Shown here: one piece after another, positions 4,476 to 61,506 of the stretch
Layout of the letters: every line of letters starts with the position of its first letter
How positions within the stretch are numbered: position 1 is the first letter of the stretch
NCBI GenBank assembly: GCA_039931165.1
Contig: JBDTSL010000003.1
Span: forward strand, 10,349-74,348
Reading direction: 5' to 3'
DNA from: Candidatus Doudnabacteria bacterium
Lineage (GTDB): Bacteria; Patescibacteriota; Doudnabacteria; UBA920; O2-02-FULL-48-8
Length of the DNA stretch: 64,000 nt
The notes under the pieces: generated by a model
What the model was told of the DNA's origin: nothing
The model's input: the letters and a program-made list of their open reading frames with translations, nothing else
The model's database searches: none
Position numbers and translations under genes: made by a program

Positions 4476-5063
4476 ATGATCAGTAAGCTAAAAAAAGATT
4501 GGACGGAATATTTTGAGAATACAAAAGAGTACCCACCCTCAAAACTTCTTATTGAGGCTCTTTGCTATGTAAACAATAAACACAAGGCTATAGATATCGG
4601 TGGCGGGGCTCTGAAAGATACCCGTTATTTACTGTCACAAGGTTTTGATACTACAGTAATTGACAAAGAGGATCAAATGGCTACTTTTGCTCGAAAGTTA
4701 AAATCTGATAGATTGCATTATTTTATAACCACTTTTGCCAACTTTGATTTTCCAGAAAATGAGTATGATATTGCCTCGGCTATATATTCATTACCATTTA
4801 ATCTACCTGAAGATTTTGATTATGTTTTAATGAAAGTAAAAAATTCTTTGGTTAAAGGTGGTATTTTTTGTGGGCAATTCTTCGGAGAGCGCGATGATTG
4901 GCATATTAATCCGACAATGACTTTCCACTCAGGGGAAAAAGTTAAGACTTTACTCGCTGATATGAATATTCTTTTATTTGAGGAAAAAGAGTTTAAAGGT
5001 AAAACTGCGAATAATTCTCCTAAATATTGGCATGTGTTTAATGTCATAGCTAGAAAAAAATAG
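4476..5063 (+). CDS. Class I SAM-dependent methyltransferase (TehB/TPMT-like small-molecule methyltransferase)
   Basis: Motif I 'AIDIGGGALKDTRYLLSQGF' and an acidic motif II 'VIDKED'. 195 aa, AT-rich coding. Confidence 0.65.
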   Translation: MISKLKKDWTEYFENTKEYPPSKLLIEALCYVNNKHKAIDIGGGALKDTRYLLSQGFDTTVIDKEDQMATFARKLKSDRLHYFITTFANFDFPENEYDIASAIYSLPFNLPEDFDYVLMKVKNSLVKGGIFCGQFFGERDDWHINPTMTFHSGEKVKTLLADMNILLFEEKEFKGKTANNSPKYWHVFNVIARKK

Positions 5064-12738: not shown

Positions 12739-12794
12739 AACGTATCTAGAGATAACAAAAAAACCTCGACATTAGTCGGGATTTTTTTAAATAT

Positions 12795-12886
12795 CCATAC
12801 TGTCAGTATATTCCAACTACTTGCATAAAACGCAAGCCAGGGCTCAATATAACGCTGTCAAGTATTGACAACAATCGACCCAATGC
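12795..12886. promoter_or_regulatory. Repeated promoter/operator module, copy R3
   Basis: TACTGTCAGTA (12798-12808, TACT-N3-AGTA), the conserved AACGCAAGCCAGGGCTCAATAT block and the palindrome TGTCAAGTATTGACA (12856-12870). Confidence 0.6.
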
Positions 12887-12961
12887 TTACACTTCATAAT
12901 GATTTGGTCGGCAATTCCGCAGGCCGCAATCACTCGTAAGCAACAATCGAAAAGAGGAATC

Positions 12962-13441
12962 ATGGAAATTCCGTCGACATTGGAAAACAAGTTGGCGAAT
13001 CTCGATCTCGAGCCGATCAAGGTCAAGCTCATGGATGCCGAAGAAGGGCCGGGTTGGTCGCTCAAGATGTGCGACTCGGTGGAGGTGCTTTACAAGCGCT
13101 TCCTGCTGCTCAACGCAACACATCCGCACATCGTTCCGACGCGAGAGATTGACCAGTTCTGGCACATGCACATTCTCGACACTTACAAGTACACCCAGGA
13201 CTGCGAAGACCTGTTCGGCCACTACTTACATCACTTCCCGTACTTTGGTATGCGGGGTGCCAGTGATGCCAGCGATTTGAAGCTGGCATTTGCCAATACG
13301 CTGGCTCTGTACGCTGCCAAGTACGGCGAACCGCTTGAAACGGCAGCGGCGATGTGCAACTGCTGTGACGATGGCGGCGGAGTGACACAGGGTGATCTCA
13401 AGGCCATTCGACCGACAATCGACCGATCACTCGCGATGTGA
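12962..13441 (+). CDS. DUF1399 / GRDP-like protein, paralogue 2 (GC-rich)
   Basis: 'YKRFLLLNATHPHIVPTREIDQFWHMHILDTYKYTQDC'. The RBS AAGAGGA precedes the ATG at 12962, so the longer 12899 start is unlikely. Confidence 0.55.
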   Translation: MEIPSTLENKLANLDLEPIKVKLMDAEEGPGWSLKMCDSVEVLYKRFLLLNATHPHIVPTREIDQFWHMHILDTYKYTQDCEDLFGHYLHHFPYFGMRGASDASDLKLAFANTLALYAAKYGEPLETAAAMCNCCDDGGGVTQGDLKAIRPTIDRSLAM

Positions 13442-13452
13442 AGGCTCATACA

Positions 13453-13487
13453 GGGGGATAAGTTGCTTTCCCCCTCTTTTTTTAAAT
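13453..13487 (+). terminator. Rho-independent terminator
   Basis: GGGGGA-taagttgctt-TCCCCC followed by TCTTTTTTTT. Confidence 0.6.
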
Positions 13488-13496
13488 CTATTAGAT

Positions 13497-14168
13497 ATGA
13501 TCACATTCTATACTAAATTAGCGAATTTATATGATAAAACCTATCTGAAAAAAGATTATCAGAAAGAAGTTTTATATTTGAAAAAATTTATTAAAGGTTC
13601 AGTTTTGGATGTTGGTTGTGGAACAGGTCGACATTTACAATATTTGAAAGATCACATACGAATTGGATTAGATAAAAGTTTGCAATTAATTAAACTTGCG
13701 AAACAAAATAATCCAGGGATTAAGTTTTTGCAAGGGGACATTGTTAATTTTAAAATTAATCAGAAATTTGATACGATTATCAGTTTGTTTACAGTGATTG
13801 CTTACCTAAATTCTAAGCAACTTGAGGAAGCTATTAATAATTTAGTCAGTCATTTGAACTCTAAAGGAATTTTAATTTTAGAACCTTTCGCTGAACCAAA
13901 AACCTTGTCATTGAAACCTTGGTTTAATTCCTATAATTCACCAACTTTAAAATTTACTCGATATGTGACTCTCAAAAAAATTAGAAATATAGCTAAACTA
14001 AATATTCAATGGTGGGTTAATGGAAATACTATTAAAGAAGTTCAACATTTATCATTATTTAAGCATAAACATATCATCAAATTATTAAATAAATATTGTG
14101 TTAAAGTCGAGTATTTGCCACCAACGCATTTATTTAGATACGGACTATTTGTGGCTAGAATTTCTTGA
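13497..14168 (+). CDS. Class I SAM-dependent methyltransferase (AT-rich)
   Basis: Motif I 'VLDVGCGTGRH' and motif II 'RIGLDKS'. The internal start 'MITFYTKL' was chosen because the longer ORF overlaps the upstream gene in a different frame. Confidence 0.7.
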   Translation: MITFYTKLANLYDKTYLKKDYQKEVLYLKKFIKGSVLDVGCGTGRHLQYLKDHIRIGLDKSLQLIKLAKQNNPGIKFLQGDIVNFKINQKFDTIISLFTVIAYLNSKQLEEAINNLVSHLNSKGILILEPFAEPKTLSLKPWFNSYNSPTLKFTRYVTLKKIRNIAKLNIQWWVNGNTIKEVQHLSLFKHKHIIKLLNKYCVKVEYLPPTHLFRYGLFVARIS

Positions 14169-14239
14169 ATATAAAAATAGTTAAGGGAACTATATACCTA
14201 AATCGGCTGGATCGCTTCACAAAAATATCTTTTCTTGAA

Positions 14240-14345
14240 TCGAACAGCGTAAAGGCAAGATCTGGGTCGAGTCGAAAGGGGAGGTAAAGGCGAGGTCAAC
14301 ACCACGGAATTCGACCTGACCAAGACCCAAACACCGGCTTGAAAT
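14240..14345 (+). pseudogene. Truncated duplicate of the 3' end of the histidine-kinase gene (direct repeat of 12602-12740 with a 35-bp internal deletion)
   Basis: 'CGAACAGCGTAAAGGCAAGATCTGGGTCGAGTCG' and 'AAAGGCGAGGTCAACACCACGGAATTCGACCTGACCAAGACCCAAACACCGGCTTGAAA' recur at 12602-12740. Confidence 0.8.
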
Positions 14346-14411
14346 ATATCGCCCGATTTGTTAGAATTGGTTAGCGTTCGGGCGTAGCTCAGCGGTAGAG
14401 CAGCTGACTGT

Positions 14412-14981
14412 GAACAAGTTCTTAAAGGCGGCATAAAGGTCTTATTTTATGCCAAAAGAGAAGAGAACATATTCCGACCGTTCTCAATACATTATCCAGG
14501 CGGTTACCAAGAGACGTAAAAAGCTCAGGGAAATGGCTAGGGTGTATAAAGGCGGTAAATGTATGATCTGTGGTTACGATCGCTGTCTAGGAGCGCTTGA
14601 TTTTCACCACATTGATCCTTCCAAGAAAAAGTTTGGAATATCCATGAACGGATTAACCAAATCTTGGGATAAGATCAAAGGCGAACTGGATAAGTGCATC
14701 TTAATTTGCGCGAATTGCCACAGAGAAATCCATGCAGGAATTACGCAGCTTCCTGGGGAAACCCAGGTTGAAAAACGAGGTGAACTCGGGGAAGCCCTGC
14801 ACCAGTAATCGGTACAGGGTAATCCCGAGCCAAGCTCCGACTTTTCAGTCGGAGAAGGTGTAGAGACTATCCCGCAAGGGAGTACTCCCAGCCCTTTCTT
14901 CGAAAGTGCTGGGCGGAAGCGCCTCGGACCCCTAATAGGGTTATGATATAGTCCATACTAAAGGCGACTTTAGATTAAATG
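14412..14981 (+). ncRNA. Group I self-splicing intron (570 nt) carrying an HNH endonuclease ORF
   Basis: Conserved core elements: R-like 'GAGACTA' (14863-14869) and S-like 'GATATAGTCC' (14944-14953), which form P7 (GACTA/TAGTC). Terminal G (omegaG) at 14981. Confidence 0.65.
14449..14808 (+). CDS. HNH homing endonuclease encoded within the group I intron
   Basis: 'CMICGYDRCLGALDFHHIDP...CILICANCHREIH' gives CxxC ... HH ... CxxCH, the HNH zinc-finger and catalytic motif. Confidence 0.8.
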   Translation: MPKEKRTYSDRSQYIIQAVTKRRKKLREMARVYKGGKCMICGYDRCLGALDFHHIDPSKKKFGISMNGLTKSWDKIKGELDKCILICANCHREIHAGITQLPGETQVEKRGELGEALHQ

Positions 14982-15025
14982 TAATCAGCGGGTCGCTGGT
15001 TCGAATCCAGCCGCCCGAGCCAAAT

Positions 15026-15056
15026 AAAAAAACCTGACTTCTGTCGGGTTTTTTTA
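15026..15056. terminator. Bidirectional terminator after the tRNA
   Basis: AAAAAAACCTGAC-ttct-GTCGGGTTTTTTT (one G-U pair in the stem). Confidence 0.7.
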
Positions 15057-15182
15057 TTTGTTTGACAGGCTGGATTCGAAGGGCAGAAGTGAGGCAAGAC
15101 CCCAGTCGCAGCCGAACGTCGACGGAAGCGAGGGCTCGCAGCTTCCGTCGCTGCCCCGGACATGAGCGCATCAGCGCGAATC

Positions 15183-15240
15183 CGAATCCAGCCGCCCGAG
15201 CCAAAAGAAAGAAACTGACTTCTGTCAGTTTCTTTCTTTT
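15183..15240 (+). repeat. Second copy of the tRNA 3' end (CGAATCCAGCCGCCCGAGCCAAA) plus a second terminator (AAAGAAAGAAACTGAC-ttct-GTCAGTTTCTTTCTTT): att-like scar
   Basis: A 21-nt exact repeat of 15002-15022. Both terminators share the core CTGACTTCTGTC. Inverted T-arm fragments GGCTGGATTCGAAGGG (15068-15082) and GGCGGATTCGAAGGG (15262-15273) follow each unit. Confidence 0.6.
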
Positions 15241-15284
15241 CGATTCCCGGCGGCGGATTCGAAGGGTTGAAGTCATACAATTAA

Positions 15285-16256
15285 TCAGACGCCAACTGAA
15301 TGTCGTACATGCTGTATCATTTTTACAATCGCTGCGACCACAGCTTCAGGCTGTTCAATTTGAATGCGGTGACCACTTTGATCTGCAAAGAACTGTTGGC
15401 TGTCAGTCGATAACTCTAAGAGGCTGGCCTGCGCGGCGGTGTGTTTGGCATCCTTATCTTTGCCGCGCGATAGAACGATTAAAGGCAATGCTCCCAGCGT
15501 GGTCACAGCCCTGGCTTGGGCTCCTCCTTCGGACATCCCCATGCCTTCGTCTAGGAAGGTTTGGACGGAACGGGGAGCCACGGAAAAAGCTGTAAAAGCT
15601 TGCTTATTCTCTGACGGTAGGTTTTCAATCGCGCCGAGCGGGCCTGCCAGCAAACGCACCAAACCGATGCGAGCCATCAAAGACGGCAAGGAATTTTTAC
15701 CAGGTTGCGGAGCTGGCTTAGGATTGGCACCGGAAGCGGGCAGGTCTTGGGCATCAATCAGCACCAACCCGGAGACTTCGGCCGGATAGTCATGAGTATA
15801 CACCCGCACGGTATATCCTCCGAGCGAATGGCCAACTAGTACATACGGTCCGTGTTCGTTGTCCTTAGCCAGTAAGGTATGTAATTCTTCAGCGAATTTA
15901 CGGGCGGTTCGCGGCTCGGGACTGGTCTCGCTCCATCCCATTCCTGCTCGATCATAACTGCAAACACGAGTGGTCTTAGCAACTTCGGGCTGCACCCAAC
16001 CCCAGACGGCGGACGAATCCCCCCATCCAGATTCGATTATCACAGTAGGGCTGCCAGTACCGGTGCAATTGATATGCAGGCGGTATCCGCCGACGTCAAC
16101 CATACGACCTGGAGGCGGGTAGGTACGCGCATCAGCCGCTTCAGATTTATTCTCGTAAATAGTGCCTGTTATTATTAAAAATAATAGAACCAGCACCGCT
16201 CTTGCGAGCCAAACTAACAGTTTTTGACCTCTACGGGCTAGAGTGAGTTTATTCAT
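15285..16256 (-). CDS. Alpha/beta-hydrolase fold protein (esterase/lipase-like), N-terminal membrane anchor, GC-rich
   Basis: Nucleophile elbow 'GHSLGG' and N-terminal TM 'LLVWLARAVLVLLFLIITG'. GC content is clearly above the surrounding sequence. Confidence 0.75.
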   Translation of the reverse strand: MNKLTLARRGQKLLVWLARAVLVLLFLIITGTIYENKSEAADARTYPPPGRMVDVGGYRLHINCTGTGSPTVIIESGWGDSSAVWGWVQPEVAKTTRVCSYDRAGMGWSETSPEPRTARKFAEELHTLLAKDNEHGPYVLVGHSLGGYTVRVYTHDYPAEVSGLVLIDAQDLPASGANPKPAPQPGKNSLPSLMARIGLVRLLAGPLGAIENLPSENKQAFTAFSVAPRSVQTFLDEGMGMSEGGAQARAVTTLGALPLIVLSRGKDKDAKHTAAQASLLELSTDSQQFFADQSGHRIQIEQPEAVVAAIVKMIQHVRHSVGV

Positions 16257-16453
16257 TTCTTTACAATAGCATTGTTTATGATAATACCATAACGCATCTT
16301 CGAATTTTTTACCCCTTTGTTTTAGTGCGTATTAGCGGTTCTGCGAATCAGAACAGCTCGAGCCATGAAAAAATCATTAACACGTTTGATGATTTTTTTG
16401 TTGTTTGAAATGCATGCTATACTTAAGAGCATCATTAAATACCAGAATAAACA

Positions 16454-17140
16454 ATGGCAATCGAATCAACGAGAAAAATATCTTTACTTGCAGGCGTGTT
16501 CTACGTACTAACTTTTATCTCGATCCCGACACTCGCGCTTTATGGTCCGATACATGATCCAAACTACATCGTGGGCTTGGGTCCCGATACTAAAGCACTT
16601 ATCGGTGCCGTTCTGGAGGTGATCGTGGCCCTGGCCGGCATCGGCACTGCCATTGCACTTTATCCGATGGTAAAGAAGCAGAATGAGGGAATGGCTTTGG
16701 GTTTTGTCATTACCCGGACATTGGAAGGCGCCACTATTTTCGCTGGCGTAGCTTGTCTTTTGTCGGTGGTGAGCCTCAGGCAAGCTGGAGCCGGAGCTGG
16801 TGCGTTGGTCACGGGGCATGCGCTGATGGCTCTATATGACCGCCTGTTCCTCCTCGGACAAAGCCTCATGCCAGGGATAAATGCCGTGTTACTCGGTACA
16901 TTATTATATCGATCGCGCCTGGTCCCTCGGTTTCTTCCTGTGCTCGGATTGATCGGAGCGCCATTGCTCCTCGCAGCCGACCTCGCCGTATTGTTTGGCC
17001 TCATCGACCGGGTATCTACGTTGGCACTGGTCACCGCACTGCCGATCGCACTGTGGGAGTTCTCGTTGGGCATCTGGCTGATTATAAAAGGGTTCAATCA
17101 ATCCGCAATAAATTCTTTAGAGGCAAAGACAGGCAATTAG
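16454..17140 (+). CDS. Integral membrane protein (DUF4386-like), GC-rich
   Basis: 228 aa with ~6 TM segments and 'LYRSRLVPRFLPVLGLIGAPL'. The family assignment is from memory. Confidence 0.45.
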   Translation: MAIESTRKISLLAGVFYVLTFISIPTLALYGPIHDPNYIVGLGPDTKALIGAVLEVIVALAGIGTAIALYPMVKKQNEGMALGFVITRTLEGATIFAGVACLLSVVSLRQAGAGAGALVTGHALMALYDRLFLLGQSLMPGINAVLLGTLLYRSRLVPRFLPVLGLIGAPLLLAADLAVLFGLIDRVSTLALVTALPIALWEFSLGIWLIIKGFNQSAINSLEAKTGN

Positions 17141-17273
17141 ATATTCTCAGTGTTTTTTGTTATTATGTAAATATGAAAACTAACTCAAGCCAAAAACTGA
17201 AAGACGGCGCCAAATGCAAGGTCATCGCCGCGCTTCTGTCTTACGCCAGTTTTCAGCTGGCTTATAAATCGCG

Positions 17274-17603
17274 ATGAGTCTGGTTTTCCGGAATATTCTG
17301 AAAACAAAGGGAGAAGGAAAGCCGCCTCTGCCGGCGCCGGGCTGGATCAAGAAACTTTTTCTTGACGATATGGCGTATGTGATCGGGGTCCTCTCCGCAG
17401 TTTTTAATATTCCCCAGTTGGTTGAGATCTGGGTAAATAAAAACGCCACCGGCGTATCATCATTGTCATGGACCGGATTTAGTTTGGTTTCGGTTTTCTG
17501 GCTTTATTATTCCATCGTCCATAAAGAAAAAGCCCTGATCCTGACTTTTTCCTTGACCCTGATCTTGCAGGCAGCCATCGCCTTGGGGAGTTTTATTTAT
17601 TGA
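17274..17603 (+). CDS. PQ-loop / SemiSWEET-like small transporter
   Basis: 'FNIPQLVEIW' PQ motif and three TM helices. Possible shorter start at 'MAYVIG'. Confidence 0.65.
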   Translation: MSLVFRNILKTKGEGKPPLPAPGWIKKLFLDDMAYVIGVLSAVFNIPQLVEIWVNKNATGVSSLSWTGFSLVSVFWLYYSIVHKEKALILTFSLTLILQAAIALGSFIY

Positions 17604-17800
17604 AATACCAATCCTCGCTTGCGGTGACGATGCCGAAGTCAATCATGATTCATCTGAAGTGGAAAGAGCATCAGAAAGTAGTGGTAAAAAAAATCCGTGG
17701 AGGGGTGCAGGTTAAGTATTGGAAGAAAAAACACTAGCCTAAGCTCGTGTTTTTTGTTATGATTATAATATTAAGGGTCAGCTGTCTGAAATAAAAATCC

Positions 17801-18223
17801 ATGCTAATAAAATTTTTCGACAAACTTGAGGATAAGGTGCGACGACGGCTAAGCCATTACCCGATTTGGTACGGCATTGCCGGCGGCATCGGCGTAGTGC
17901 TGTTTTGGCGCGGTGTCTGGCATACCACCGACTATATTATGCTCAGATTCGTTTACGCGAGGTTTTACGACTCCAGCACCAACCTTTCGGAATTGATATG
18001 GTGGGATGGGCCGCTTTCAATAGTATTGGGGTCGGGATTGCTGTTGATGATCGGTTTGTTTGTCTCCAACTTTGTCGGCAACGAAATAATAATCTCCGGC
18101 CTTAAAGGCGAACAAAAACTTTCGGAAAAAACCGTAAAGCAGCTTAAATCTGAAAGTGAGGCGACCAGAGAAATGAGAAGGGATATCAAGAAAATATCAG
18201 CCAAGCTCGACAGCCTAAAATAA
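17801..18223 (+). CDS. Hypothetical membrane protein with C-terminal coiled-coil
   Basis: ORF of 140 aa with two TM segments and a charged C-terminus. Confidence 0.45.
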   Translation: MLIKFFDKLEDKVRRRLSHYPIWYGIAGGIGVVLFWRGVWHTTDYIMLRFVYARFYDSSTNLSELIWWDGPLSIVLGSGLLLMIGLFVSNFVGNEIIISGLKGEQKLSEKTVKQLKSESEATREMRRDIKKISAKLDSLK

Positions 18224-18260
18224 GGCGCGCGTTTATGGGAACGGTAAGTATTATAAATAC

Positions 18261-18692
18261 ATGAACATGTTTAAAAAAGTTAAAGCGAATAGTGTTGGAA
18301 GCTACCTTAAGGCCGTACCAAAGGACCGCCAGGAAGCTGTTCTTTTCCTGCATAATTTTATAAAAAAGACTGTACCGAAACTCAAACCGCACTTTGCCTA
18401 CAATATGCTTGGCTACGGATCGTTTAAGGTCCGCAACTACAAAAAGAACTTGGTTGATTGGCCCACTATCGCTTTGGCCAACCAGAAAAATTATATCAGC
18501 CTGTATATTTGCGCTGTGGACCACGGCCAATATATCGCCGAAAAGAATAAAAAGGAATTAGGGAAGGTCAGTGTCGGCAAAAGTTGTATCCGTTTTAAAA
18601 AGGCAGAAGATCTGAATTTGCCGGGGTTACAAAAAGTCCTGCTGTTTGCCCAAAGATCACCGGGGCTTGCCGGCGTCGGAGCCAGAAAATGA
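18261..18692 (+). CDS. DUF1801 (YdhG-like) domain protein
   Basis: Resembles DUF1801: 'YLKAVPKDRQEAVLFLHNFIKKTVPKLKPHFAYNMLGYG'. Confidence 0.55.
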   Translation: MNMFKKVKANSVGSYLKAVPKDRQEAVLFLHNFIKKTVPKLKPHFAYNMLGYGSFKVRNYKKNLVDWPTIALANQKNYISLYICAVDHGQYIAEKNKKELGKVSVGKSCIRFKKAEDLNLPGLQKVLLFAQRSPGLAGVGARK

Positions 18693-19066
18693 ATTTTAAT
18701 AAGGCTCTCGCGGCCAACCGCAAAGCCAAGGCCCAATGGAAAGATCTAACCCCGCTCGCGCGGATGGACTTTGTGTATTGGATAGAGTCAGCCAAGAAGG
18801 GGGAAACACATGACCGCCGCATTACCAAAGCCTGCTCGATCCTGGCCGAGGGCAAGCGCCGGCCATGCTGCTATTCCATAGTGCCGATGAATCTTTATAA
18901 AAAACTTACAGCTACGCCTAAGGCTAAAGCTGCTTGGAAAAATCTTACGCCGATAGAACGTAGGGAATTTGTTTATAGGATAGATTCTGCTAAGGATTCG
19001 GAAGCCCGCGAGGTTCGGATTGAGAAAACCTGTACGATGCTTGCGGCAGGAAAGCGGCGGCCGTGA
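18689..19066 (+). CDS. YdeI/OmpD-associated (OmdA) family protein with two tandem copies of the domain
   Basis: Internal duplication: 'KAKAQWKDLTPLARMDFVYWIESAKKGETHDRRITKACSILAEGKRRP' and 'KAKAAWKNLTPIERREFVYRIDSAKDSEAREVRIEKTCTMLAAGKRRP'. Confidence 0.6.
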   Translation: MNFNKALAANRKAKAQWKDLTPLARMDFVYWIESAKKGETHDRRITKACSILAEGKRRPCCYSIVPMNLYKKLTATPKAKAAWKNLTPIERREFVYRIDSAKDSEAREVRIEKTCTMLAAGKRRP

Positions 19067-19075
19067 TCAGGATAC

Positions 19076-19951
19076 TTAGGGACCGGCAAGCGCCACGTCT
19101 ATTTTTGGACTTACCAGGCCGGCCAAATATTTGGTATCGTCAAAGGCCGAATACATATGCGGTTCGCCAAGCAGGACCACAACCAGCTGATGGCCGTTGT
19201 TATATTTTAGGACGGAAGCGAAATTATACATTGACTCGTTCAGGTAACCGGTTTTGGCCCCCAGCATCTGCAGGCCTTCGCTGTCCAGAAGTTTGTCTGA
19301 ATTTTTGATGGTCTGAGTATATTTTGAATTATTGGCTGCCACCAGAACGTAGCTGGTTTGCTGGGCGATAGTTCGCAAATATTGATTGGCAAAAGCGGCT
19401 GATACGATTTTCGCGTAGTCGGACGCCGTGATGACGTTGCGCGGATCCATGCCGGTCGGTTCGTTAAAATTGCTGTTGCTGGCGCCCAGAGATCTGGCCT
19501 TGGCGTTCATTTTTTTTGCGAACTGTTTGGGCGTGAGGCCGGTTGACCTGGCCAAAGCGTTGGCCGCGTTATTGGCCGAAGGCATAAGGGCGGCATGGAA
19601 CAAGCCGTCTACGGTAAATTTGACCCCTGGTACCGCCTTGACGCAGGAGCCGCCATGGCCGCAGCCGCCGGCAATCTGGTCCGCTTTTGTGATCGCGACA
19701 GATTTTGTAAGTTTGGTTTTGGCATCGAGCACCACCAACGCGGTGACAAGTTTGGTTAAAGACGCCGGAGTCCAGGCCAGATCGCTGTTTGCCGCGGCCA
19801 CGACTTGCTTGGTCTCGGCATCCATTATTACATAAGCCTTGGCGCTGACTTGGGCCGAGGCCAGTCCCGGTAAAAACGCGAATCCCGCGATTATGAGGCC
19901 GATGATTTTTTGTTTCAGAAGAAATTTTATCATGAATTTAGTATAACACAA
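19076..19951 (-). CDS. Serine-type D-Ala-D-Ala carboxypeptidase / penicillin-binding protein (S11-like)
   Basis: SxxK 'ASLTK', SxN 'PSANN', KTG 'AKTGY' and a signal peptide. Confidence 0.75.
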   Translation of the reverse strand: MCYTKFMIKFLLKQKIIGLIIAGFAFLPGLASAQVSAKAYVIMDAETKQVVAAANSDLAWTPASLTKLVTALVVLDAKTKLTKSVAITKADQIAGGCGHGGSCVKAVPGVKFTVDGLFHAALMPSANNAANALARSTGLTPKQFAKKMNAKARSLGASNSNFNEPTGMDPRNVITASDYAKIVSAAFANQYLRTIAQQTSYVLVAANNSKYTQTIKNSDKLLDSEGLQMLGAKTGYLNESMYNFASVLKYNNGHQLVVVLLGEPHMYSAFDDTKYLAGLVSPKIDVALAGP

Positions 19952-42548: not shown

Positions 42549-42932
42549 TGGTGGAGCTGGGGAGAATTGCACTCCCGTCCAAGAGATTTCAATAAATATT
42601 TCTACAAGTTTAGACCGCTTGAATTGTTACCCAAAACCATAGAAGCGGACTAAAGCGGTTTTGGCTAAGCCCTTAGTGTCCTTTGTCAGTCGGGCGTCAG
42701 ACAAAGTGAGTCCGAATAATATAACACCCGTATTCCACGCACAGACTTTGCGGAGCGGATGGGTTATCGCTTATTAAGCAACAGCCATAGCCGGAGAGAA
42801 CGCAAAAGCATTCTTTACGGTTTTTACCAATGAATTGGCATTTATGATTTGCCTTATCTTTTTAACCGAGAGATTAGGCTAATCGGACTTGCAATATTTA
42901 TCAAAGAACTCTTGTCGAATCTGAGCAGCCCC
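42549..42932 (-). ncRNA. ssrA: tmRNA (ssrA), 384 nt, immediately downstream of smpB
   Basis: 5' end GGGGCUGCUCAGAUUCGACAAG. 3' end GGACGGGAGUGCAAUUCUCCCCAGCUCCACCA. The acceptor stem has the G3-U70 Ala identity pair. An internal tag-like ORF reads ...AFAFSPAMAVA followed by TAA TAA. Confidence 0.85.
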
Positions 42933-45129: not shown

Positions 45130-48100
45130 ATGGATAAAAAATTATTTAAGCCAATAGACGCGAAACCGGACTTCCCCAAACTTGAGGAAGAGGTCTTGAA
45201 GTTTTGGGAAGAGAATCAGATTTTTGAAAAATCTTTGGAACAGACGCAAGAAGGGAAGCCGTATACTTTTTATGATGGTCCGCCTTTTGCCACCGGCTTG
45301 CCGCACTATGGCCATATTCTCGCGTCAGTGGTAAAAGATCTGTTCCCGCGCTACCAGACCATGAAAGGCAGATTTGTCCGCCGCAGATGGGGCTGGGATA
45401 CCCACGGTTTGCCGATCGAAGAATTGGTGGAACGCAAGCTTGGGATATCGGGCAAAAAAGACATAGAGCGAATCGGAATAAAAAAATTCAACGAAACCTG
45501 CCGCTCCATGGTCCTGGAGTATGTGGCAGAATGGCGTAAAATGGTCCGTAGAGTCGCGCGCTGGGTCGATTTTGATAATTCCTACAAGACCATGGACCGG
45601 GATTATATGGAATCGGTCTGGTGGGCTTTCAAGAAAACCTATGATAAAGGATTGATTTACGAAGGACGGAGAGTGCTTCTTTACTGCCCGAGGTGCGAGA
45701 CGCCTATTTCCAACTTTGAAGTGGCCATGGACAATAGTTATAAAGAAGTCACGGAAGAAGCGGTGACGGTGAAGTTTAAAGTGAAAGGACAGGAGAATAC
45801 ATATTTGTTGGCTTGGACGACCACGCCGTGGACTTTGCCCGGTAATGTGGCTTTGGCAGTGGGGGAGGATATTGAATATGTAAAAGTAGAAAAGGGTGGG
45901 GAGTTTTATATTGTGGCCAAAGAAAGAGTAAACTCTGTCTTTGCGAGCGAAGCGAAGCAATCTCAAAACAAGAAAGAGATTGCTTCGTCGCCGCCCAAGA
46001 TAGTCCTTGAGAATAAAGCGGCTCCTCGCAAAGACGTAGAGGCAGAATTCAAAGGCTCGGAACTTGTCGGCCTCGAATACGAGCCCTTGTTTGACGTGCC
46101 GTCTGTGGAATCCGATAAATCCTTTAAAGTTTATGCTGCGGATTTTGTAAATACCGAAGACGGCACCGGCATCGTCCATACAGCCGTGGTTTACGGCGAG
46201 GATGACTATAATCTCGGCATGAAAGTGGGTTTGCCAGTAGTTCCGCTACTTGATGAAAAAGGAATTTTTAACGACAAATCGCCAGAATTAGTTCGGGGAA
46301 AATATTTCAAAGACTCGGAAAAATTCATTAAGAAAGACCTGGAAAGCAGGGGATTGCTGTTCGCAAGAAAAATGCATCAGCATTCGTACCCGCACTGCTG
46401 GCGATGCGGGACCACGCTTTTTTACAATGCCATTCCCGCCTGGTTTATAAATATCCAAAAGATAAAGAAAGGCTTGCTTAAAACCAATGAAAAGGAGATC
46501 AATTGGTTTCCCGACCATCTGAAGCATGGCCGCTATCAGAAATCCGTGGAAGCTGCTCCGGATTGGAACATTTCCCGTAACAGGTATTGGGGCAATCCGA
46601 TTCCGGTCTGGAAGTGCGAAGCGGGACACAATACAGTCGTCGGAAGCATCAAGGATTTGGGTTTGTCAAAAAATACTTTTTATTTCATGAGGCACGGGCG
46701 CGCGGAAAACAATCTTTTGGGGTTGGTTGATTCTTGGCCGGATATTAAACATTATCCTCTAGTTCCTGAAGGAATCGAACAAGCCGAAACAAGCGCCAAA
46801 AAAATTAAGGAACTAGGCGGACTGGATTTAATATTTTCTTCGGATATTACCAGAACCAAACAAACCGCAGAAGTTGTTGGAGAAATATTTAATGTCAAAG
46901 TAAATTTTGATGAAAGAATAAGAGAGGCAAATAGCGGTGATTATAACGGGAGGACTTACGAGGACGTTAATCGAGATTTTCCATTTGAGTCCAGATGGGC
47001 TAAAGCTCAAAATGGCGGAGAGACAAATATCGAAATTCAGAAACGAATGCTCGATTTTGTCAAAGAAATTAATGCTAAATACCGGGGCAAGAAGATTTTA
47101 ATCGTCGGTCATGGCGACCCTTTGTTTATTTTGCAAAAATATTTCGGTTCAGAACGAAGTTATCCAAAATACGGCCAGGTTTACGAAATGGAGGTCAGTA
47201 TTGTTGATCTTCATCGCCCTTATATCGACGATGTCGTTCTCAAATGCGAGAAATGCGGCCAAGACGCGCGCAGAACGCCGGAAATATTCGATTCCTGGGT
47301 TGAGGCAGGCTCCATGCCTTTTTCCGAATATCATTATCCCTTCGATCAAAAAGAAACTTTCGAATCCCGGTTCCCGGGCCAATTCGTAGTCGAGTACATC
47401 GCCCAAACCCGGGCTTGGTTTTATGTCATGCACGTCATCTCATATATTTTGTTTGGCAAGGCTCCATTTGAAAATGTCGTGACCACGGGCACGATCCAGG
47501 CCGAGGATGGATCAAAAATGAGCAAATCCAAAAATAATTTTCCGGACCCGTGGATCGTCATTGAAAAATACGGAGTTGATGCCTTGCGGTTCTATCTGAT
47601 GAATTCACCCGTAATGCTGGCGGAAAATTTGGATTTCAGCGAGCGTGAGCTGGCCGTGGTTTACCGCAAGAATATCCTGATTCTTTGGAATGTTTATAAT
47701 TATTTCGTCACTTACGCCAATGAAGCGGGCTGGGAGCCGAAGCCCCCGGGATATAAGCCGGTGCTGGATAATGTATTGGACAAATGGATCGTGGCGAAAA
47801 CCCAGGAGTTGATTCTAGAGGTTACTCTGGAGTTGGATAATTACAATACTGTTAAAGCAACCCGCGCCATTGAGGCTTATATCAACGAGCTTTCAACTTG
47901 GTACCTGCGCAGGAGCAGGGGACGGAAAGATTCTCACTTTTTCGGCACCTTGCGCCACGCGCTGACGGTCCTGGCCAAAGTTTCCGCGCCGGTCATGCCC
48001 TATATGTCCGAATTGGTTTATTCGAATTTGAATAAAAATCCCGAAACCATATCCGTGCATTTGGCCAAGTGGCCGGAAAAGAAGGAATTGGACCAAGAAC

Positions 48101-48570
48101 AAAAGAAAATATTGGAGCAGATGCAGCAGGTAAGAGATCTGGTAGAGCAGGGACATGCGCTTCGCAAAGCTTCCAATATCCGCTTGAGGCAGCCATTGGA
48201 GTCATTTACTTATGATAAACAGCTATTGGCAAAGGATTTCGAAGAGATTTTGGCGGATGAATTGAATGTAAAATCGGTTAAATTCGGAAGCATTCTAGAA
48301 TTTGATCTCAAAATTACGCCTAAACTGAAAAATGAAGGCTTGGCCCGGGAGCTTGAACGGACAGTGCAGGAAATGCGGAAAAAGTCGGGCTTTAAGGTTG
48401 GCGAAAAGGCCAATTTATCGTATGATACAGAGGACAAGGAATTAAAAGCCGCTTTTGAGCTGTTTGACACAAAAAAGACATATATAGGGAAGATATCTCA
48501 AGGAAAAGGCGGGGAAGATGCGGAAATTGACGGAAAAAAAGTGTTTCTGTCTTTGCGAGGAGGCCAGTAG
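45130..48570 (+). CDS. ileS: Isoleucine--tRNA ligase (type 2, HYGH variant of HIGH)
   Basis: 'PPFATGLPHYGH' and 'KMSKSKNN'. 1146 aa. Carries an in-frame family-A repeat insertion (45976-46035). The last 6 codons and the stop lie within another family-A copy (48551-48605). Confidence 0.9.
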   Translation: MDKKLFKPIDAKPDFPKLEEEVLKFWEENQIFEKSLEQTQEGKPYTFYDGPPFATGLPHYGHILASVVKDLFPRYQTMKGRFVRRRWGWDTHGLPIEELVERKLGISGKKDIERIGIKKFNETCRSMVLEYVAEWRKMVRRVARWVDFDNSYKTMDRDYMESVWWAFKKTYDKGLIYEGRRVLLYCPRCETPISNFEVAMDNSYKEVTEEAVTVKFKVKGQENTYLLAWTTTPWTLPGNVALAVGEDIEYVKVEKGGEFYIVAKERVNSVFASEAKQSQNKKEIASSPPKIVLENKAAPRKDVEAEFKGSELVGLEYEPLFDVPSVESDKSFKVYAADFVNTEDGTGIVHTAVVYGEDDYNLGMKVGLPVVPLLDEKGIFNDKSPELVRGKYFKDSEKFIKKDLESRGLLFARKMHQHSYPHCWRCGTTLFYNAIPAWFINIQKIKKGLLKTNEKEINWFPDHLKHGRYQKSVEAAPDWNISRNRYWGNPIPVWKCEAGHNTVVGSIKDLGLSKNTFYFMRHGRAENNLLGLVDSWPDIKHYPLVPEGIEQAETSAKKIKELGGLDLIFSSDITRTKQTAEVVGEIFNVKVNFDERIREANSGDYNGRTYEDVNRDFPFESRWAKAQNGGETNIEIQKRMLDFVKEINAKYRGKKILIVGHGDPLFILQKYFGSERSYPKYGQVYEMEVSIVDLHRPYIDDVVLKCEKCGQDARRTPEIFDSWVEAGSMPFSEYHYPFDQKETFESRFPGQFVVEYIAQTRAWFYVMHVISYILFGKAPFENVVTTGTIQAEDGSKMSKSKNNFPDPWIVIEKYGVDALRFYLMNSPVMLAENLDFSERELAVVYRKNILILWNVYNYFVTYANEAGWEPKPPGYKPVLDNVLDKWIVAKTQELILEVTLELDNYNTVKATRAIEAYINELSTWYLRRSRGRKDSHFFGTLRHALTVLAKVSAPVMPYMSELVYSNLNKNPETISVHLAKWPEKKELDQEQKKILEQMQQVRDLVEQGHALRKASNIRLRQPLESFTYDKQLLAKDFEEILADELNVKSVKFGSILEFDLKITPKLKNEGLARELERTVQEMRKKSGFKVGEKANLSYDTEDKELKAAFELFDTKKTYIGKISQGKGGEDAEIDGKKVFLSLRGGQ
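45976..46035 (+). repeat. Family-A repeat inserted in frame in ileS (encodes EIASSPPKIVLENKAAPRKD)
   Basis: GAGATTGCTTCGTCGCCGCCCAAGATAGTCCTTGAGAATAAAGCGGCTCCTCGCAAAGAC. Only this frame of the element is open. Confidence 0.75.
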
Positions 48571-57286: not shown

Positions 57287-58903
57287 ATGAAAAGTTTCCG
57301 CAAAAAATCTTTTGCTTCGGCCGCGCTTGGCGTATTCCTGCTAAGTCAGTTGTTTTTTGTCGCGTCGGTGACGCTCATTCCGAATCCACAGCCTGCCCAG
57401 GCCCAAGCCGCAGCCGCGGCCTTGGCCACTGTCCCTACCGCGGACTTGCCTACGGTTTATGAAAGGATAGCCATAGGGATTGCCAGAGCGTTCCTGCAAA
57501 AATTCACCGAGAAATTCCTGACCAAATTTACGAATCTGCTGGTGAATAAATATAAGATCAGAAATTTTCTTTATTACGATCAGGTTTTAACCGACTATTA
57601 CCTGAATAATTATATATACGACAAAATTCAAGACCCCGATCTGCGGAATATTTATACTTTATTGGAGCGGGCATATGTGAGCGGGGCTTCAACAGGAACT
57701 ACGAATGCCCCTGATCCGAACAAGGCCTTGATCCCGCAGCTAAACAAAGCAGTCAGCGATTATTATAAAAAAATTGGCGGGATTGACCCGAATAAAGTTT
57801 ATTATCCCGCCCGCAATGTCAGTGATAGGGAATACTTTGCCACCGCTCAGGCATATTTTGCCAATCCACCCAGCTTTACCGAACAAAACTTGCGCGGGCA
57901 ATTCGGCGCGTTCCAAACTTCGGCGACCACAGCGGCGCAACTGGAAATTATCGTAGGCAATAGCCTGAAAGCCGGCCGCATCATCGGCGGCACCTGCGAT
58001 TTTTCTGGCCCTATTCCAGCCGGCCAGGTCGACCCGAAAACTTCGCCGGCGGCCTGTCAGTCATTGGGAGGAAGTTGGACGCCTTCACTTTTGGATAAAG
58101 CCCGTTCTTTCATAGACAACCCTTCTGGTTTCGTCCAAAATACCTTAGATGCTTTTATCAGCCAGCACATCGGCAATCTTTATAATCCGAGCACCGATTT
58201 TTGGACCCAAGTCGGCGGGGCATTCGGCTCCTTCATTTGGAATCAGCTCGGACTGAATAAGTCCTCCCAGGATATATTAATCGAAGACCCGAGGGGTTAT
58301 GTGGGCGAGGACTTTGGCGCAGCAACTCAAACAGACAATACATTGTCGCTGGAGAAAGGCCAGATTGATATAGACACAGATGGCATCTCGGACGGAGTTG
58401 ACTACGACGGTGACGGCAGAATTGATATTTGTTCTTACGGCGGCAATCCTCCGGATGCTTGCGTGGGATCCAGAACGCTCATTACTGCCGGATCGGGGGG
58501 CGGAGGGTTGACTTGCACCGATGTTCCTACTGCCATGGCATGTCAAGCGCCAAACCACACTGATTTAGTGGCTCGGGTAAAAACTTACCTTGTTTCGCGA
58601 GGCCAGCAATTTAATACCTTGTGCGACGCTTTCGAAATTGTGAAGCGCGTGGCTTGGGCTCTGCGAGGGGAGGGCGCGGGATTAATGACCACCTTCCACT
58701 CAACCCAATGTAATGGGCTTTCGGCTGATATTGTCGCTTATACTGACGGTTCGGGCGTTGATGTGCTTGGTAGCGCCGGACCACCGCCATCAGATGGAAG
58801 CGCGTATGATATTCCGGTATGGCTGCCCGGTCCTGATAACCCGGAAGCCGGAGTTGATTATGCCCCGCCCGCCGATCCGGGCGATCCGCCGGGAAGTTAT
58901 TAG
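57287..58903 (+). CDS. Large secreted protein with Asp/Gly-rich (calcium-binding-like) segment
   Basis: Signal peptide and 'DTDGISDGVDYDGDGRIDICSYGG'. Contains multiple Cys. Confidence 0.45.
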   Translation: MKSFRKKSFASAALGVFLLSQLFFVASVTLIPNPQPAQAQAAAAALATVPTADLPTVYERIAIGIARAFLQKFTEKFLTKFTNLLVNKYKIRNFLYYDQVLTDYYLNNYIYDKIQDPDLRNIYTLLERAYVSGASTGTTNAPDPNKALIPQLNKAVSDYYKKIGGIDPNKVYYPARNVSDREYFATAQAYFANPPSFTEQNLRGQFGAFQTSATTAAQLEIIVGNSLKAGRIIGGTCDFSGPIPAGQVDPKTSPAACQSLGGSWTPSLLDKARSFIDNPSGFVQNTLDAFISQHIGNLYNPSTDFWTQVGGAFGSFIWNQLGLNKSSQDILIEDPRGYVGEDFGAATQTDNTLSLEKGQIDIDTDGISDGVDYDGDGRIDICSYGGNPPDACVGSRTLITAGSGGGGLTCTDVPTAMACQAPNHTDLVARVKTYLVSRGQQFNTLCDAFEIVKRVAWALRGEGAGLMTTFHSTQCNGLSADIVAYTDGSGVDVLGSAGPPPSDGSAYDIPVWLPGPDNPEAGVDYAPPADPGDPPGSY

Positions 58904-58913
58904 GAATATTTAA

Positions 58914-61490
58914 ATGGGAAACCTAAAGCACAAAGCAATAGTTATAGCGATGCTCGCGATCACGGCAAATATTTTATTTGCCAATTTTGCTTTGGGGCAG
59001 GCACCGGCTACAAGTACTCCCGCTACCACATCAACGATAACAAAACAAATGCTGCTTGATGCTTTGCAGAGCCAATCAGCCTGTGCTTCCTTGAGCACAG
59101 CTATATCCAATTTGACTCCGGCAAGAGGAATTGGAAGTTATATTACTTTTTGGGATCCTTCTGCAGCGCAGAAATGCAGTTTTCAACGTATATATCGTTT
59201 TCGAGCTGATGGCAGTCCAGATACACGCTCCGATGCTTCTACTGTTGCTGCATGGGAAGCTTATATGAAGCAAGATGAATCTCTTATAAACAGTTTTGTT
59301 ACAACGACTCAAAAAAATGATGCAACAGTAGCAAAACTTAATGCTCAAGAAACCCAAGCCAATCCTTTAAGCATCTTTATTGCTTGGGTGCTTATCCCTA
59401 TCTTTGGCGTCGTGAACGCGTTTTTAGCCGGTATTGCAGTTATGGCTGGGGCAATTTTTAACCAAGCAATTATTCCAGTTATCAGTATAACTACGATGCC
59501 GACGATTGTTAATACCGGTTGGATGATAGTGCGTGATGTCTGTAATATGTTTTTTATTCTGGCTTTGATCGTGATTGCTTTAGGAATGATTTTAAGATTA
59601 AAAGAATACCAAGAATACGGGACTCTTTTGCGGAACCTGATTATAGCAGCGATTTTGGTAAACTTTAGCCAAGTCATAGCGGTAACTATAATGAATGCGG
59701 TTAATTTTTTGGCTTCGGTATTCTGGGGTGATGGTACAGGAATAGTTCATGTTTTTGCGACTTTTATGCGAATTGCCAACCCTGTTGGTGATTTTAGCCT
59801 TACTATACAGGGAGGAGCTCCTGCGGAGCTGGCTTTAGGCTTGGGTAGACTTACTTTTATGTTAGTGGCTACTGTGGTCTTCATTGCTTTGGCTGGCATG
59901 TTTGTAATTCGTCTTGTAGGATTATATGTCTTGATTATTTTTTCGCCTGTTGCTTTTGTCGCAAATATATTGCCTGTTTCGAAGAAATTTGCAGAACAGT
60001 GGTGGAGCAGTTTTTTTAAATATTTGATCTGGGCGCCAGTGGCATTATTTATGCTTAGATTAGTTATACTTGTGGTAGATAATGATTCTCAATTTAATTT
60101 TATAGGCGGCGGGGGCCATGATTCTGTTTTCATTTATTTTATTCTGACAGCTTTTATTGGCGCCGCGCTTTTGTTGGCCCAGAAGGCGGGGATGGTGGGG
60201 AGCGACATGGTGGTTAATGCGGCCAAAGCAACCGGGAAATTTGGTTTGCATGCCGCTGACCGTAAATTGGCCTCATGGTCAGATTCTTCAAGTAGAGTTA
60301 AGAAGGGATTGTCCTATTTAAGCTTTGGGGCTGCGAAAAAAGGTTATGAACTGCGTCAGCACCACAAAGAAGAAGAATCCTATACTGTTGCCGCGGGTAA
60401 AAGAGCAAATACTTTTGCTGCTGTTATGAGTGGAGGTAGAGAAAAAGGCGACTTCGAAAGATTAGCCCGATACCAGAGAGTAGCGCAGGAAAAAAAGCGG
60501 TTTGAAAATATCACAGATAAAGACGAATTAACGGCAATCGCAACTCATGCTTATGAAAATAAGGAATACGATAAGTTTATGGGCGCTTGGTCCAAACTTG
60601 CGGCTCAGGGCGATATGAATGAAGTTGCTTTAGCAATGGTGGACAAGGAAGCCAGTGCCGAGAACGTGCAAAAAATTGTTCAAAAAATGGTAGATGAGAC
60701 CGGAAATAAAGAATGGTCCCGATTAGCGGCGGATACTACTAAAATAGCGGAAGGCCAAGGAGATTATATTTTTGCCGGAGCATTTGAGCGGGACGGAAAG
60801 ACAGGAGATTACGGTGCGAGAGGTGAAGACGAAAGAAGAAATTATGTGAATACCCAGAGAGCAAAGAACAGCGACCAATCGAATGTCAGAAATTTGGGCA
60901 GGCGAGGATTAGGGTTTATAGAAGCAAATGGAATCAATCCTAATACTGCCAAATCAGTGTGGTATGTTAAAAAGATCGAGGCCGACGGGACAGATTATGC
61001 GAGCCGATTGAAGGACATCAGCGGATGGAGAAATAACGGCAATAAAAATGCCAAAGCTAATGTGGCTATAAGTGGTTCTAAAGAATGGCTTGAAGCAAAT
61101 CCGGAAGCTTGGGCAGCTGCAGCTAGCGAATATGCGGAGCTTGACAAGGATAAAAGTACCGCAGGCCGAGAGCGTCTAGTTGAATTTAGAAAATCAGTTG
61201 CTGCTCCAAATATAGAAGAAAATTATAATACCCCTAGCACGGTAAGCCCTGCACAGGCAAAAATATTCTTTGAAAGTAAAGAAATAGGACGGCAAATTAA
61301 GGCCAAGATTGAAAGTGGCGATCAGAAAGATAAAGAAGCTACTCGGAAAGACTATGGTGTTTTGTATGACTATGCTTATGGGTCTTCTCCAACTCGCACA
61401 CCATCAACTACACCGTTTTCGACCCCGACCCCAACGATTTCTCCAAGTGGAGGCATAAGACCCCCAACTAGCTCTCCTCCTATAATGTAA
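58914..61490 (+). CDS. TrbL/VirB6-like polytopic membrane protein with a long hydrophilic C-terminal extension
   Basis: Signal peptide and an N-terminal soluble region, then a block of ~7 TM helices (about residues 150-400), then a ~450-aa charged tail ending in a Pro/Ser/Thr-rich segment. This layout is that of VirB6/TrbL. Confidence 0.45.
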   Translation: MGNLKHKAIVIAMLAITANILFANFALGQAPATSTPATTSTITKQMLLDALQSQSACASLSTAISNLTPARGIGSYITFWDPSAAQKCSFQRIYRFRADGSPDTRSDASTVAAWEAYMKQDESLINSFVTTTQKNDATVAKLNAQETQANPLSIFIAWVLIPIFGVVNAFLAGIAVMAGAIFNQAIIPVISITTMPTIVNTGWMIVRDVCNMFFILALIVIALGMILRLKEYQEYGTLLRNLIIAAILVNFSQVIAVTIMNAVNFLASVFWGDGTGIVHVFATFMRIANPVGDFSLTIQGGAPAELALGLGRLTFMLVATVVFIALAGMFVIRLVGLYVLIIFSPVAFVANILPVSKKFAEQWWSSFFKYLIWAPVALFMLRLVILVVDNDSQFNFIGGGGHDSVFIYFILTAFIGAALLLAQKAGMVGSDMVVNAAKATGKFGLHAADRKLASWSDSSSRVKKGLSYLSFGAAKKGYELRQHHKEEESYTVAAGKRANTFAAVMSGGREKGDFERLARYQRVAQEKKRFENITDKDELTAIATHAYENKEYDKFMGAWSKLAAQGDMNEVALAMVDKEASAENVQKIVQKMVDETGNKEWSRLAADTTKIAEGQGDYIFAGAFERDGKTGDYGARGEDERRNYVNTQRAKNSDQSNVRNLGRRGLGFIEANGINPNTAKSVWYVKKIEADGTDYASRLKDISGWRNNGNKNAKANVAISGSKEWLEANPEAWAAAASEYAELDKDKSTAGRERLVEFRKSVAAPNIEENYNTPSTVSPAQAKIFFESKEIGRQIKAKIESGDQKDKEATRKDYGVLYDYAYGSSPTRTPSTTPFSTPTPTISPSGGIRPPTSSPPIM

Positions 61491-61506
61491 CAATAAGTAT
61501 AGAGCT

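Follow-up and report, generated by a model that had tools for sequence, protein, structure and literature searches.

The split tRNA-Asn gene and the repeat behind it

The stretch analysed, referred to here as the window, comprises 64,000 nucleotides (nt) of a Candidatus Doudnabacteria genome (contig JBDTSL010000003.1), and the subject of this report is a small folded element that lies directly behind a tRNA-Asn(GUU) gene within it. ARAGORN with default settings and Rfam at its gathering threshold detected no tRNA in the window, only a transfer-messenger RNA (tmRNA) at 42549-42932. When introns were allowed, ARAGORN placed tRNA-Asn(GUU) at 14378-15022, with a 570-nt intron after position 34. 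The intron interrupts the anticodon loop after anticodon nucleotide 35, and joining 14411 to 14982 restores tRNA-Asn(GUU). Exon 1 (14378-14411, + strand) contains the acceptor 5′ strand, the D arm and the anticodon stem through nucleotide 35; exon 2, from the same ARAGORN prediction, occupies 14982-15022 (+ strand).

The intron itself (14412-14981, + strand) is preceded by U and has G as its last base. It was identified as a group I intron by a permissive Rfam search (RF00028, 57.6 bits for a gathering score of 50, over 14706-14974) and contains an HNH-like open reading frame (ORF) at 14449-14808 (Pfam HNH, E = 5e-4). The same intron with its ORF was found in the tRNA-Asn gene of two further Doudnabacteria (L214 and L216; 85-88% amino-acid identity), and the tRNA genes of the relatives L012, L213 and L069 are intron-less. 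The literature searched yielded no report of a group I intron in tRNA-Asn for these bacteria, and their intron-split tRNA genes escape default annotation tools. Just before the tRNA, at 14339-14367 (+ strand), a sigma-70-like promoter match (TTGAAA-17-TAGAAT, with TG upstream) was detected.

An earlier note on this DNA had reported that the 21-nt end of the tRNA and its terminator core recur 181 nt downstream, and this was confirmed. A repeat search gave a 58-nt direct repeat (15002-15059 and 15183-15240) with 84% identity at a spacing of 181 nt, within which the 21-mer CGAATCCAGCCGCCCGAGCCA, running from C56 of the tRNA to CCA, is exact at 15002-15022 and at 15183-15203 (both + strand). The first copy is the last 21 nt of exon 2, that is, the tail of a real tRNA, although the gene is not contiguous; the second is the 3′ end of the element copy described below as unit A. 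The chance expectation for the 21-mer was 0 in 100 shuffles, and a third copy was not found on either strand of the whole 64 kb with up to three mismatches. The inverted T-arm fragments described in the same note also exist, as GGCTGGATTCGAAGGG at 15068-15083 and GGCGGATTCGAAGGG at 15252-15266, the sequence GGATTCGAAGGG being present downstream of each repeat copy, at 15072 and 15255.

Each tail copy is followed by a terminator-like palindrome containing the core CTGACTTCTGTC. Hairpin T1, behind the tRNA (15021-15060, + strand; inverted repeat I3), has 18-nt arms (15021-15038/15043-15060) that are 94% complementary, with an A-tract and a T-tract at its flanks. Hairpin T2, behind unit A (15203-15240, + strand; inverted repeat I4), is an A-tract/T-tract palindrome with 17-nt arms (15203-15219/15224-15240) that are 100% complementary. 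Tail copy, hairpin and arm together constitute a long palindrome (inverted repeat I1, 35-nt arms).

A similar hairpin was observed in a genome labelled Saccharibacteria (L052), where the terminator behind a tRNA-Asn gene without the element (4734-4770) is approximately 93% identical to both window hairpins (15023-15060 and 15204-15240), in unrelated flanks. The tRNA tail and the terminator may travel as one piece.

A conserved folded element between the repeats

The approximately 160 bp between the two repeats of the window form a conserved structured element, and the repeats and inverted fragments can be assigned with high confidence to its ends. In all full copies, which measure about 120-150 nt, the 3′ end is the exact last 21 nt (C56 to CCA) of the upstream tRNA, and the 5′ start is reverse-complementary to that tail over its first 8-12 nt. 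These two segments pair as the closing helix P1, which encloses four to five further helices (P2, P2a, P3, P4 and an optional P5) whose pairing is kept by compensatory substitutions, and the whole folds into two nested three-way junctions. The junction sequences around the helices, GAAGyGAGGCAAG and GmAGCynGArCG, are conserved. In every copy the element has the orientation of its tRNA, and a hairpin usually stands right behind CCA.

In the window, the complete element (unit A) occupies 15064-15203 on the + strand and scored 159 bits with the covariance model R1. According to the consensus fold, P1 joins the 5′ arm 15068-15078 to 15183-15193, P2 pairs 15081-15086 with 15151-15156, P2a, with a tandem G.A inside, pairs 15089-15095 with 15111-15117, P3 spans 15098-15107, P4 pairs 15120-15129 with 15141-15150, and P5 spans 15166-15177. 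The tail GCCCGAGCCA at 15194-15203 is left single-stranded. A second, diverged unit (unit B) is represented by a 5′ stump, GGCGGCGGATTCGAAGGGTTGAAGT, at 15249-15273 (+ strand), recognised as part of repeat family D4 and by comparison with the homologous copies in L012 and L045. It consists of a P1 arm and the GGGTTG form of P2 found in those two copies, and the similarity stops 11 nt short of the stop codon of the next gene, a hydrolase. As the P2 of unit A is of the GGGCAG type, shared with a third homologous copy in L143, the two units belong to different subtypes and are not the product of a fresh local duplication.

The inverted fragments at 15068-15083 and 15252-15266 provide the 5′ side of the closing helix. 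Their sequence co-varies with the type of tRNA (Asn, Val and Gly-like), which scars of attachment (att) sites would not do.

The model R1 was built from three copies and used to search approximately 220 loci. The four members scored 159, 144, 130 and 73 bits, and no other match exceeded 18 bits. In the four-sequence alignment (39 pairs), standard pairs were present in 95.4% of the cells, and 14 of the 39 pairs were altered on both sides. None of 500 shuffles equalled the observed pairing, which fell to 28-41% when the 3′ partners were shifted by 1-3 columns. Helix by helix, P2 is GGGCAG/CUGCCC in the window and in L143 and GGGUUG/CAACCC in L012 and L045; P2a (GU[GA]GGC with GCC[GA]AC, where the bracketed bases form the tandem G.A) has a U-A to C-G swap in L045; the sequence of P4 is wholly different in L045 and in L143; and P5 is missing from L045. 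The balance between P1 and the free tail also varies: 11 bp plus 10 nt in the window, where only three further pairs are possible upstream, 12 bp plus GAGCCA in L045, and 8 bp plus 13 nt in L143; tRNA-like minihelix RNAs have an unbroken helix of ~12 bp with NCCA as a single-stranded end. The 21-nt repeat nevertheless runs from the T-loop to CCA in all copies, although its first 3 nt lie outside P1 in L045.

Minimum-free-energy folds of the + strand matched the consensus, with z values between -3.5 and -6.4 (-3.5 for unit A), and for three of the four members the + strand gave a better fold than the - strand. When a read-through transcript was folded, either tail copy was able to complete the tRNA; therefore, the whole insert can be drawn as an insertion into the T-loop.

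The indels between copies, which include an 11-nt insert in P3 and 1-nt gaps, are not multiples of three, so the element is not coding. A protein-coding reading of the overlapping ORFs at 14941-15276 (- strand) and 15062-15595 (+ strand) was accordingly rejected, every frame being broken by these indels. No Rfam 15 family matched 15064-15203, the best hits being chance-level, hairpin-like matches with E of at least 0.018 and below gathering scores, and nothing was found over the element in L012, L045 or L143. A cloverleaf with D, anticodon and T arms was not found in it either: ARAGORN and the Rfam tRNA model detected the upstream tRNAs only. By eye, a hammerhead core, helix 8 of the signal recognition particle RNA and a kink-turn were rejected for want of the conserved bases or the bulge that they require; Rfam gave no match to them either. 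With blastn, the element had no match in phage or plasmid collections, and no described equivalent was found in the literature.

A functionless origin was considered, in which slippage or unequal crossing-over copied the tail and terminator and template switching at the palindrome produced the inverted pieces. The terminator hairpins are indeed near-perfect palindromes, with T1 and T2 84% alike, but such an accident fails to explain a core of approximately 100 nt with compensatory changes in four genomes and behind different tRNAs, and it is judged the most improbable of the readings considered here.

Homologues were searched for in several ways. An exact scan with the 21-mer (one genome per species) showed that tRNA-Asn ordinarily ends in CGAATCCAGCCGCCCGAGCCA in Kiritimatiellia, Lentisphaerae, Verrucomicrobia and Patescibacteria. 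Among the 81 loci listed of at least 119, two copies were present only in L012 (Ca. Doudnabacteria RIFCSPHIGHO2_01_FULL_45_18) and L045 (a metagenome-assembled genome labelled Ca. Saccharibacteria). Behind the tRNA-Asn gene, which has no intron in either, come a hairpin, a stretch alignable with 15064-15203 that ends in the second 21-mer, and another, unrelated hairpin. Scans of metagenome and viral contigs with the core motif GAAGGGNNGAAGNGAGGCAAG gave matches that were nearly all purine-rich chance; the real ones were L191, with the same sequence as L012, and L143. The L012-type copy was identical across contigs of five samples, and samples of the ERZ2725xxxx series contain this type.

The element of L143, a Doudnabacteria-like contig, lies behind tRNA-Val(CAC), and its last 21 nt agree with the Val tail, CGAGTCCAGCATCATCCACCA, at 21/21 positions. 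The 5′ arm is compensated, TGGACTCG pairing with CGAGTCCA at the start of that tail. Its P2/P2a core is nearly identical to that behind tRNA-Asn in the window. The closest relatives of the adjoining signal peptidase are Doudnabacteria proteins.

When the antisense pseudo-ORF of the element was used as a protein query against 1.8 billion representatives, it recovered the L012 population and one new protein of 102 amino acids, P0242, encoded on an NCBI contig of 5,003 bp. On back-translation, two frames of this pseudo-ORF about 175 nt apart are both compatible with the reverse complement of one 21-mer, CGATTCCCGTATCCCGCTCCA, which has a tRNA-Gly-like acceptor with U73. The protein is also compatible with the 5′ arm GCGGGAATCGA (predicted in the DNA as GCGGGAATCG) followed by the conserved core GGGCAGAAGUGAGGCA, and is incompatible with the Asn and Val versions. 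Its source would thus be an element behind a tRNA-Gly-like gene, probably in tandem here too, as the peptide includes a second, partial unit.

Several candidates were discarded. L140 and L198 looked similar initially, but lack the P2 partner and scored 12-16 bits with the covariance model; a 15-bit match in L068 (Tagaea) lies in a GC-rich coding region; both matches of a second viral-contig pattern fall within coding sequence; and P0243, the second match of the pseudo-ORF query, is a tandem-repeat protein.

Empty sites were found behind tRNA-Asn in L216 (where the tRNA bears the intron), L213 and L052, and behind tRNA-Val in L229. Remnants were also present. In L024, the last ~60 nt of the element, the Asn tail and a hairpin remain with no tRNA nearby; in L214, GAGTGAGGCAAG and the P3 hairpin lie directly behind the tRNA-Asn terminator; and in L227, a close relative of L143, a degenerate 3′ part lies between tRNA-Val and lepB. 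Syntenic Doudnabacteria loci retrieved through homologues of the histidine kinase encoded upstream of the tRNA yielded empty sites, intron-bearing tRNA-Asn genes and one remnant, and no new full copy. The kinase of the window itself is 100% identical to an NCBI protein labelled Ca. Doudnabacteria. The family is patchy, occurring behind tRNA-Asn, tRNA-Val and, putatively, a tRNA-Gly-like gene; it can be tandem and decays to 5′, internal or 3′ remnants.

An independently assembled contig (L001; Logan, SRR26386588, the sample that contains this genome), corresponding to 15152-16915 of the window, ends at 15152, inside unit A and close to the point where the L024 remnant starts. This end could reflect a branch between population variants in the sample.

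Such a distribution bears on whether the element is simply a resident, non-mobile small RNA gene that arose by partial tandem duplication of a tRNA, kept its tail through function or gene conversion and was lost repeatedly by deletion. The 5′ arm of L045 resembles an acceptor 5′ strand fused to a T-stem 5′ strand (UAGGGCG+GCUGG) and gives a 12-bp minihelix plus GAGCCA, and in several Doudnabacteria the element or remnants of it are present at the site, which would fit vertical inheritance with losses. On the other hand, the same core stands behind tRNA-Asn in the window, tRNA-Val in L143 and apparently a Gly-like tRNA, the two tandem units of the window are of different subtypes, and one copy is in a genome labelled Saccharibacteria. 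A resident gene is therefore regarded as a doubtful, though serious, alternative.

The neighbouring genes and the proposed island

The genes downstream of the element are an alpha/beta-hydrolase (15285-16256, - strand), a DUF4386 gene (16454-17140) and a PQ-loop/MtN3 (SemiSWEET-like) gene (17274-17603). The first two identities, given before from the sequence, were supported by Pfam, and the third was a weak match. The Pfam scan covered 64 predicted ORFs of at least 100 amino acids, at E 0.01 for the ten ORFs in 12899-19951 and at E 1e-6 for the other 54.

In the earlier note, the tail copies were read as att scars of an integrase-mediated insertion, and the hydrolase and DUF4386 genes as a decayed foreign island. 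Integration into tRNA genes usually leaves a partial copy of the tRNA 3′ end as its mark (PMC9897764), and both the size and position of the repeat and the variability of the region are as expected. The repeats, however, bracket only the 160-bp structured element, not a scar and not the genes: both copies are proximal to the genes, and the third 21-mer proposed to delimit the island is lacking from the window at up to three mismatches. The sequence between them is, moreover, conserved and co-varying in other genomes. The absence of an integrase that had been noted was confirmed, as no integrase, transposase, resolvase or reverse transcriptase was detected among the 64 ORFs, shorter remnants not having been searched.

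The composition of the two genes had been said to depart from that of their surroundings, and this did not hold. The GC content (G+C fraction) is 0.526 for the hydrolase and 0.521 for DUF4386 (0.488 and 0.559 at third codon positions, GC3), approximately 1.2 standard deviations above the mean of the genes in the window (0.461, standard deviation 0.053), and about 17 other genes reach at least 0.50. The true compositional outlier of the locus is a methyltransferase upstream of the tRNA (13392-14168; GC 0.297, GC3 0.243), a homologue of which is absent from the loci of the relatives.

No homologues of the hydrolase, DUF4386 or SemiSWEET-like genes were found at the corresponding loci of relatives, and the element is missing at the empty sites given above; absence from related genomes is expected of an island. 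Two ORFs upstream of the tRNA are, however, equally lineage-specific. The region from the end of the kinase gene (12738) to the OmdA/Peptidase_S11 genes (from 18689) is variable on both sides of the tRNA among Doudnabacteria. Relative to the kinase gene, the segment with tRNA-Asn and the element has opposite orientations in the window and in L191. Therefore, the hydrolase/DUF4386 block consists of accessory genes not delimited by the repeats; a decayed island is very unlikely, and the island model and neutral duplication are both largely excluded.

Gene content across 12739-18688 differed in every genome compared (L191, L213, L214 and L216). A haem-copper oxidase operon (COX2, COX1, COX3, COX4_pro) was observed beside the kinase gene in the Doudnabacteria loci L214 (11674-16273, additionally with UbiA), L215 (7034-10776) and L218 (3678-5672); as Patescibacteria are generally described as having no respiratory chains, it was unexpected.

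Elsewhere in the window, the tmRNA (42549-42932, - strand; Rfam, 125 bits) encodes a long tag peptide, ANSLVKTVKNAFAFSPAMAVA. A class I aminoacyl-tRNA synthetase ORF of the Ile/Leu/Val/Met family (45130-48570, 1146 amino acids) carries, according to Pfam, a His_Phos_1 histidine-phosphatase domain (residues 517-694) within its catalytic tRNA-synt_1 domain. Three consecutive large ORFs at 57287-63150 (538, 858 and 547 amino acids) had no Pfam match at E 1e-6.

A putative small RNA and its relation to known systems

The reading that we favour, with a probability of roughly 0.6, is that the element is a dispensable, probably once-mobile, putative small RNA that mimics the tail of a tRNA. On this view, a gene for a small non-coding RNA would follow the tRNA gene directly and in the same orientation. 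Its transcription, on the strand of the tRNA, would proceed by read-through or begin at a start that escaped recognition, and would end at CCA or at the next hairpin. What its closing helix and single-stranded NCCA tail would imitate is the T-stem of the cognate tRNA together with the 3′ half of the acceptor, so that enzymes recognising the ends of tRNAs could bind or handle it. It may have spread as a dispensable, non-autonomous insertion through recombination at the shared tRNA tail. A small RNA is the most likely product because of the tRNA orientation, the CCA end, the hairpin usually found behind it and the better fold of the + strand. The dispensable, formerly mobile appearance follows from the three tRNA species, the tandem units of different subtypes, the patchiness and the decay. 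Insertion through recombination at the tRNA tail agrees with a repeat that extends from C56 to CCA; by itself it leaves the complementary arm and the core unexplained.

A competing reading on the question of strand and molecule is a miniature, non-autonomous integrative DNA element, inserted at the T-loop by a recombinase encoded elsewhere, with the 21-mer as the att identity block. The helices would then act in folded single-stranded DNA rather than RNA, the hairpin of tail and arm rebuilding a double-stranded T-arm. In CTX-phage attP(+) and integron attC sites, a double-stranded site is likewise rebuilt by a folded single strand. The constant extent of the repeat from T-loop to CCA, even with its first 3 nt outside P1 in L045, the long palindrome I1, and the patchy, tandem and decaying distribution over three tRNA species all agree with this proposal, and covariation cannot separate RNA from single-stranded DNA. 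No recombinase adjoins any copy, however, and the multi-branched interior, with its conserved unpaired junction bases and tandem G.A helix, is unlike known attC or dif-type sites. The constant tRNA orientation, with a hairpin behind CCA, suggests a transcript, and three of the four copies fold better as the + strand. A DNA element of this type is accordingly considered possible but improbable.

Several points weigh against the small RNA that we favour. The family comprises only four full DNA copies, plus one deduced from a protein, so that the covariation statistics derive from four sequences, in an alignment that was fitted to the model; folded single-stranded DNA would yield identical covariation. 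Since the T-arms of tRNA-Asn and tRNA-Val differ by one base, the Val copy adds a single compensatory change in P1, and the stronger, Gly-like case would come from amino acids only. Transcription of the + strand is a prediction from sequence: no promoter-like site for the element was found on that strand within 14200-15500, where the match before the tRNA is the sole one. The strand evidence is weak, as the model helices contain a single G.U pair and the - strand of L045 folds even better than the + strand. As for mobility, neither an enzyme for it nor an excised or circular form was seen, and because the same site is occupied in related lineages, movement in the present day is only a proposal.

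A further, minority reading, which we regard as unlikely, is that the element is a programmable, self-targeting unit, whose 5′ arm guides it to the T-loop and T-stem of a chosen tRNA or tRNA gene and whose 21-nt tail is the copied target. A change of arm would then redirect it from tRNA-Asn to tRNA-Val or tRNA-Gly. In one version, this would amount to guide-directed insertion behind tRNA genes without an adjacent enzyme gene. In the other, the RNA would resemble a natural 'external guide sequence', the unpaired acceptor strand and CCA of its tail pairing with the tRNA 5′ strand and so recruiting RNase P or other tRNA-end enzymes.

The genomes of Patescibacteria are tiny and contain little non-coding DNA. 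If confirmed, the element would represent an undescribed class of structured RNA or mini-element in this group. It is unusual in design: the final 21 nt of the neighbouring tRNA, copied literally, and an arm complementary to them are set around a conserved core. It connects tRNA mimicry with insertion at tRNA genes and offers a test case for how very small elements without an enzyme gene persist and move. For annotation, it indicates that a partial tRNA repeat need not signal the boundary of an island.

Among known systems, elements that integrate into tRNA genes and leave partial attL/attR repeats, including the integrase-less cis-mobilizable elements (CIMEs), also have a repeat from the T-loop to the end with the intact tRNA on one side, and share the patchy occurrence and the tandem and decaying insertions seen here. 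A T-loop sublocation class of integration in tRNA genes was reportedly described by Williams in 2002. The present insert differs in being only ~160 bp long, gene-free and itself a conserved fold, with no integrase found nearby, and in its far end, which complements the repeat and changes in step with the type of tRNA.

Integron attC sites, CTX-phage attP(+) and palindromic miniature inverted-repeat transposable elements (MITEs) or repetitive extragenic palindromic (REP) sequences share with the element the terminal inverted complementarity, small size, lack of coding capacity and a neighbouring terminator hairpin. In contrast, its interior is multi-branched with conserved junction bases, and no integron or Xer context was apparent. 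The 8-12-nt P1 arms are not directly abutted by the short target-site duplication that marks a MITE or insertion sequence: the 21-nt repeat includes the 3′ arm, and T1 separates the upstream repeat copy from the 5′ arm.

The TnpB omega-RNA, the IS110 bridge RNA and the guides of group I and II introns also contain a segment that matches the target. The element might be described in the same terms as a scaffold of ~115 nt with a 3′ segment of ~21 nt identical to the neighbouring target and an internal, target-complementary segment that changes with the target. However, no TnpB, IS110 recombinase or intron core accompanies it, the 'guide' is partly paired within the element, and the target is duplicated, unlike in those systems.

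The tRNA-like domain of tmRNA, YrlA/Y RNA, viral 3′ tRNA-like structures and mascRNA would share with it a mimic of the acceptor/T-arm ending in NCCA. The element, which matches no Rfam family, differs from these RNAs in having its core in place of a T-loop and an acceptor 3′ strand that is mostly unpaired, and its tail does not mimic tRNAs in general but copies the neighbouring one literally.

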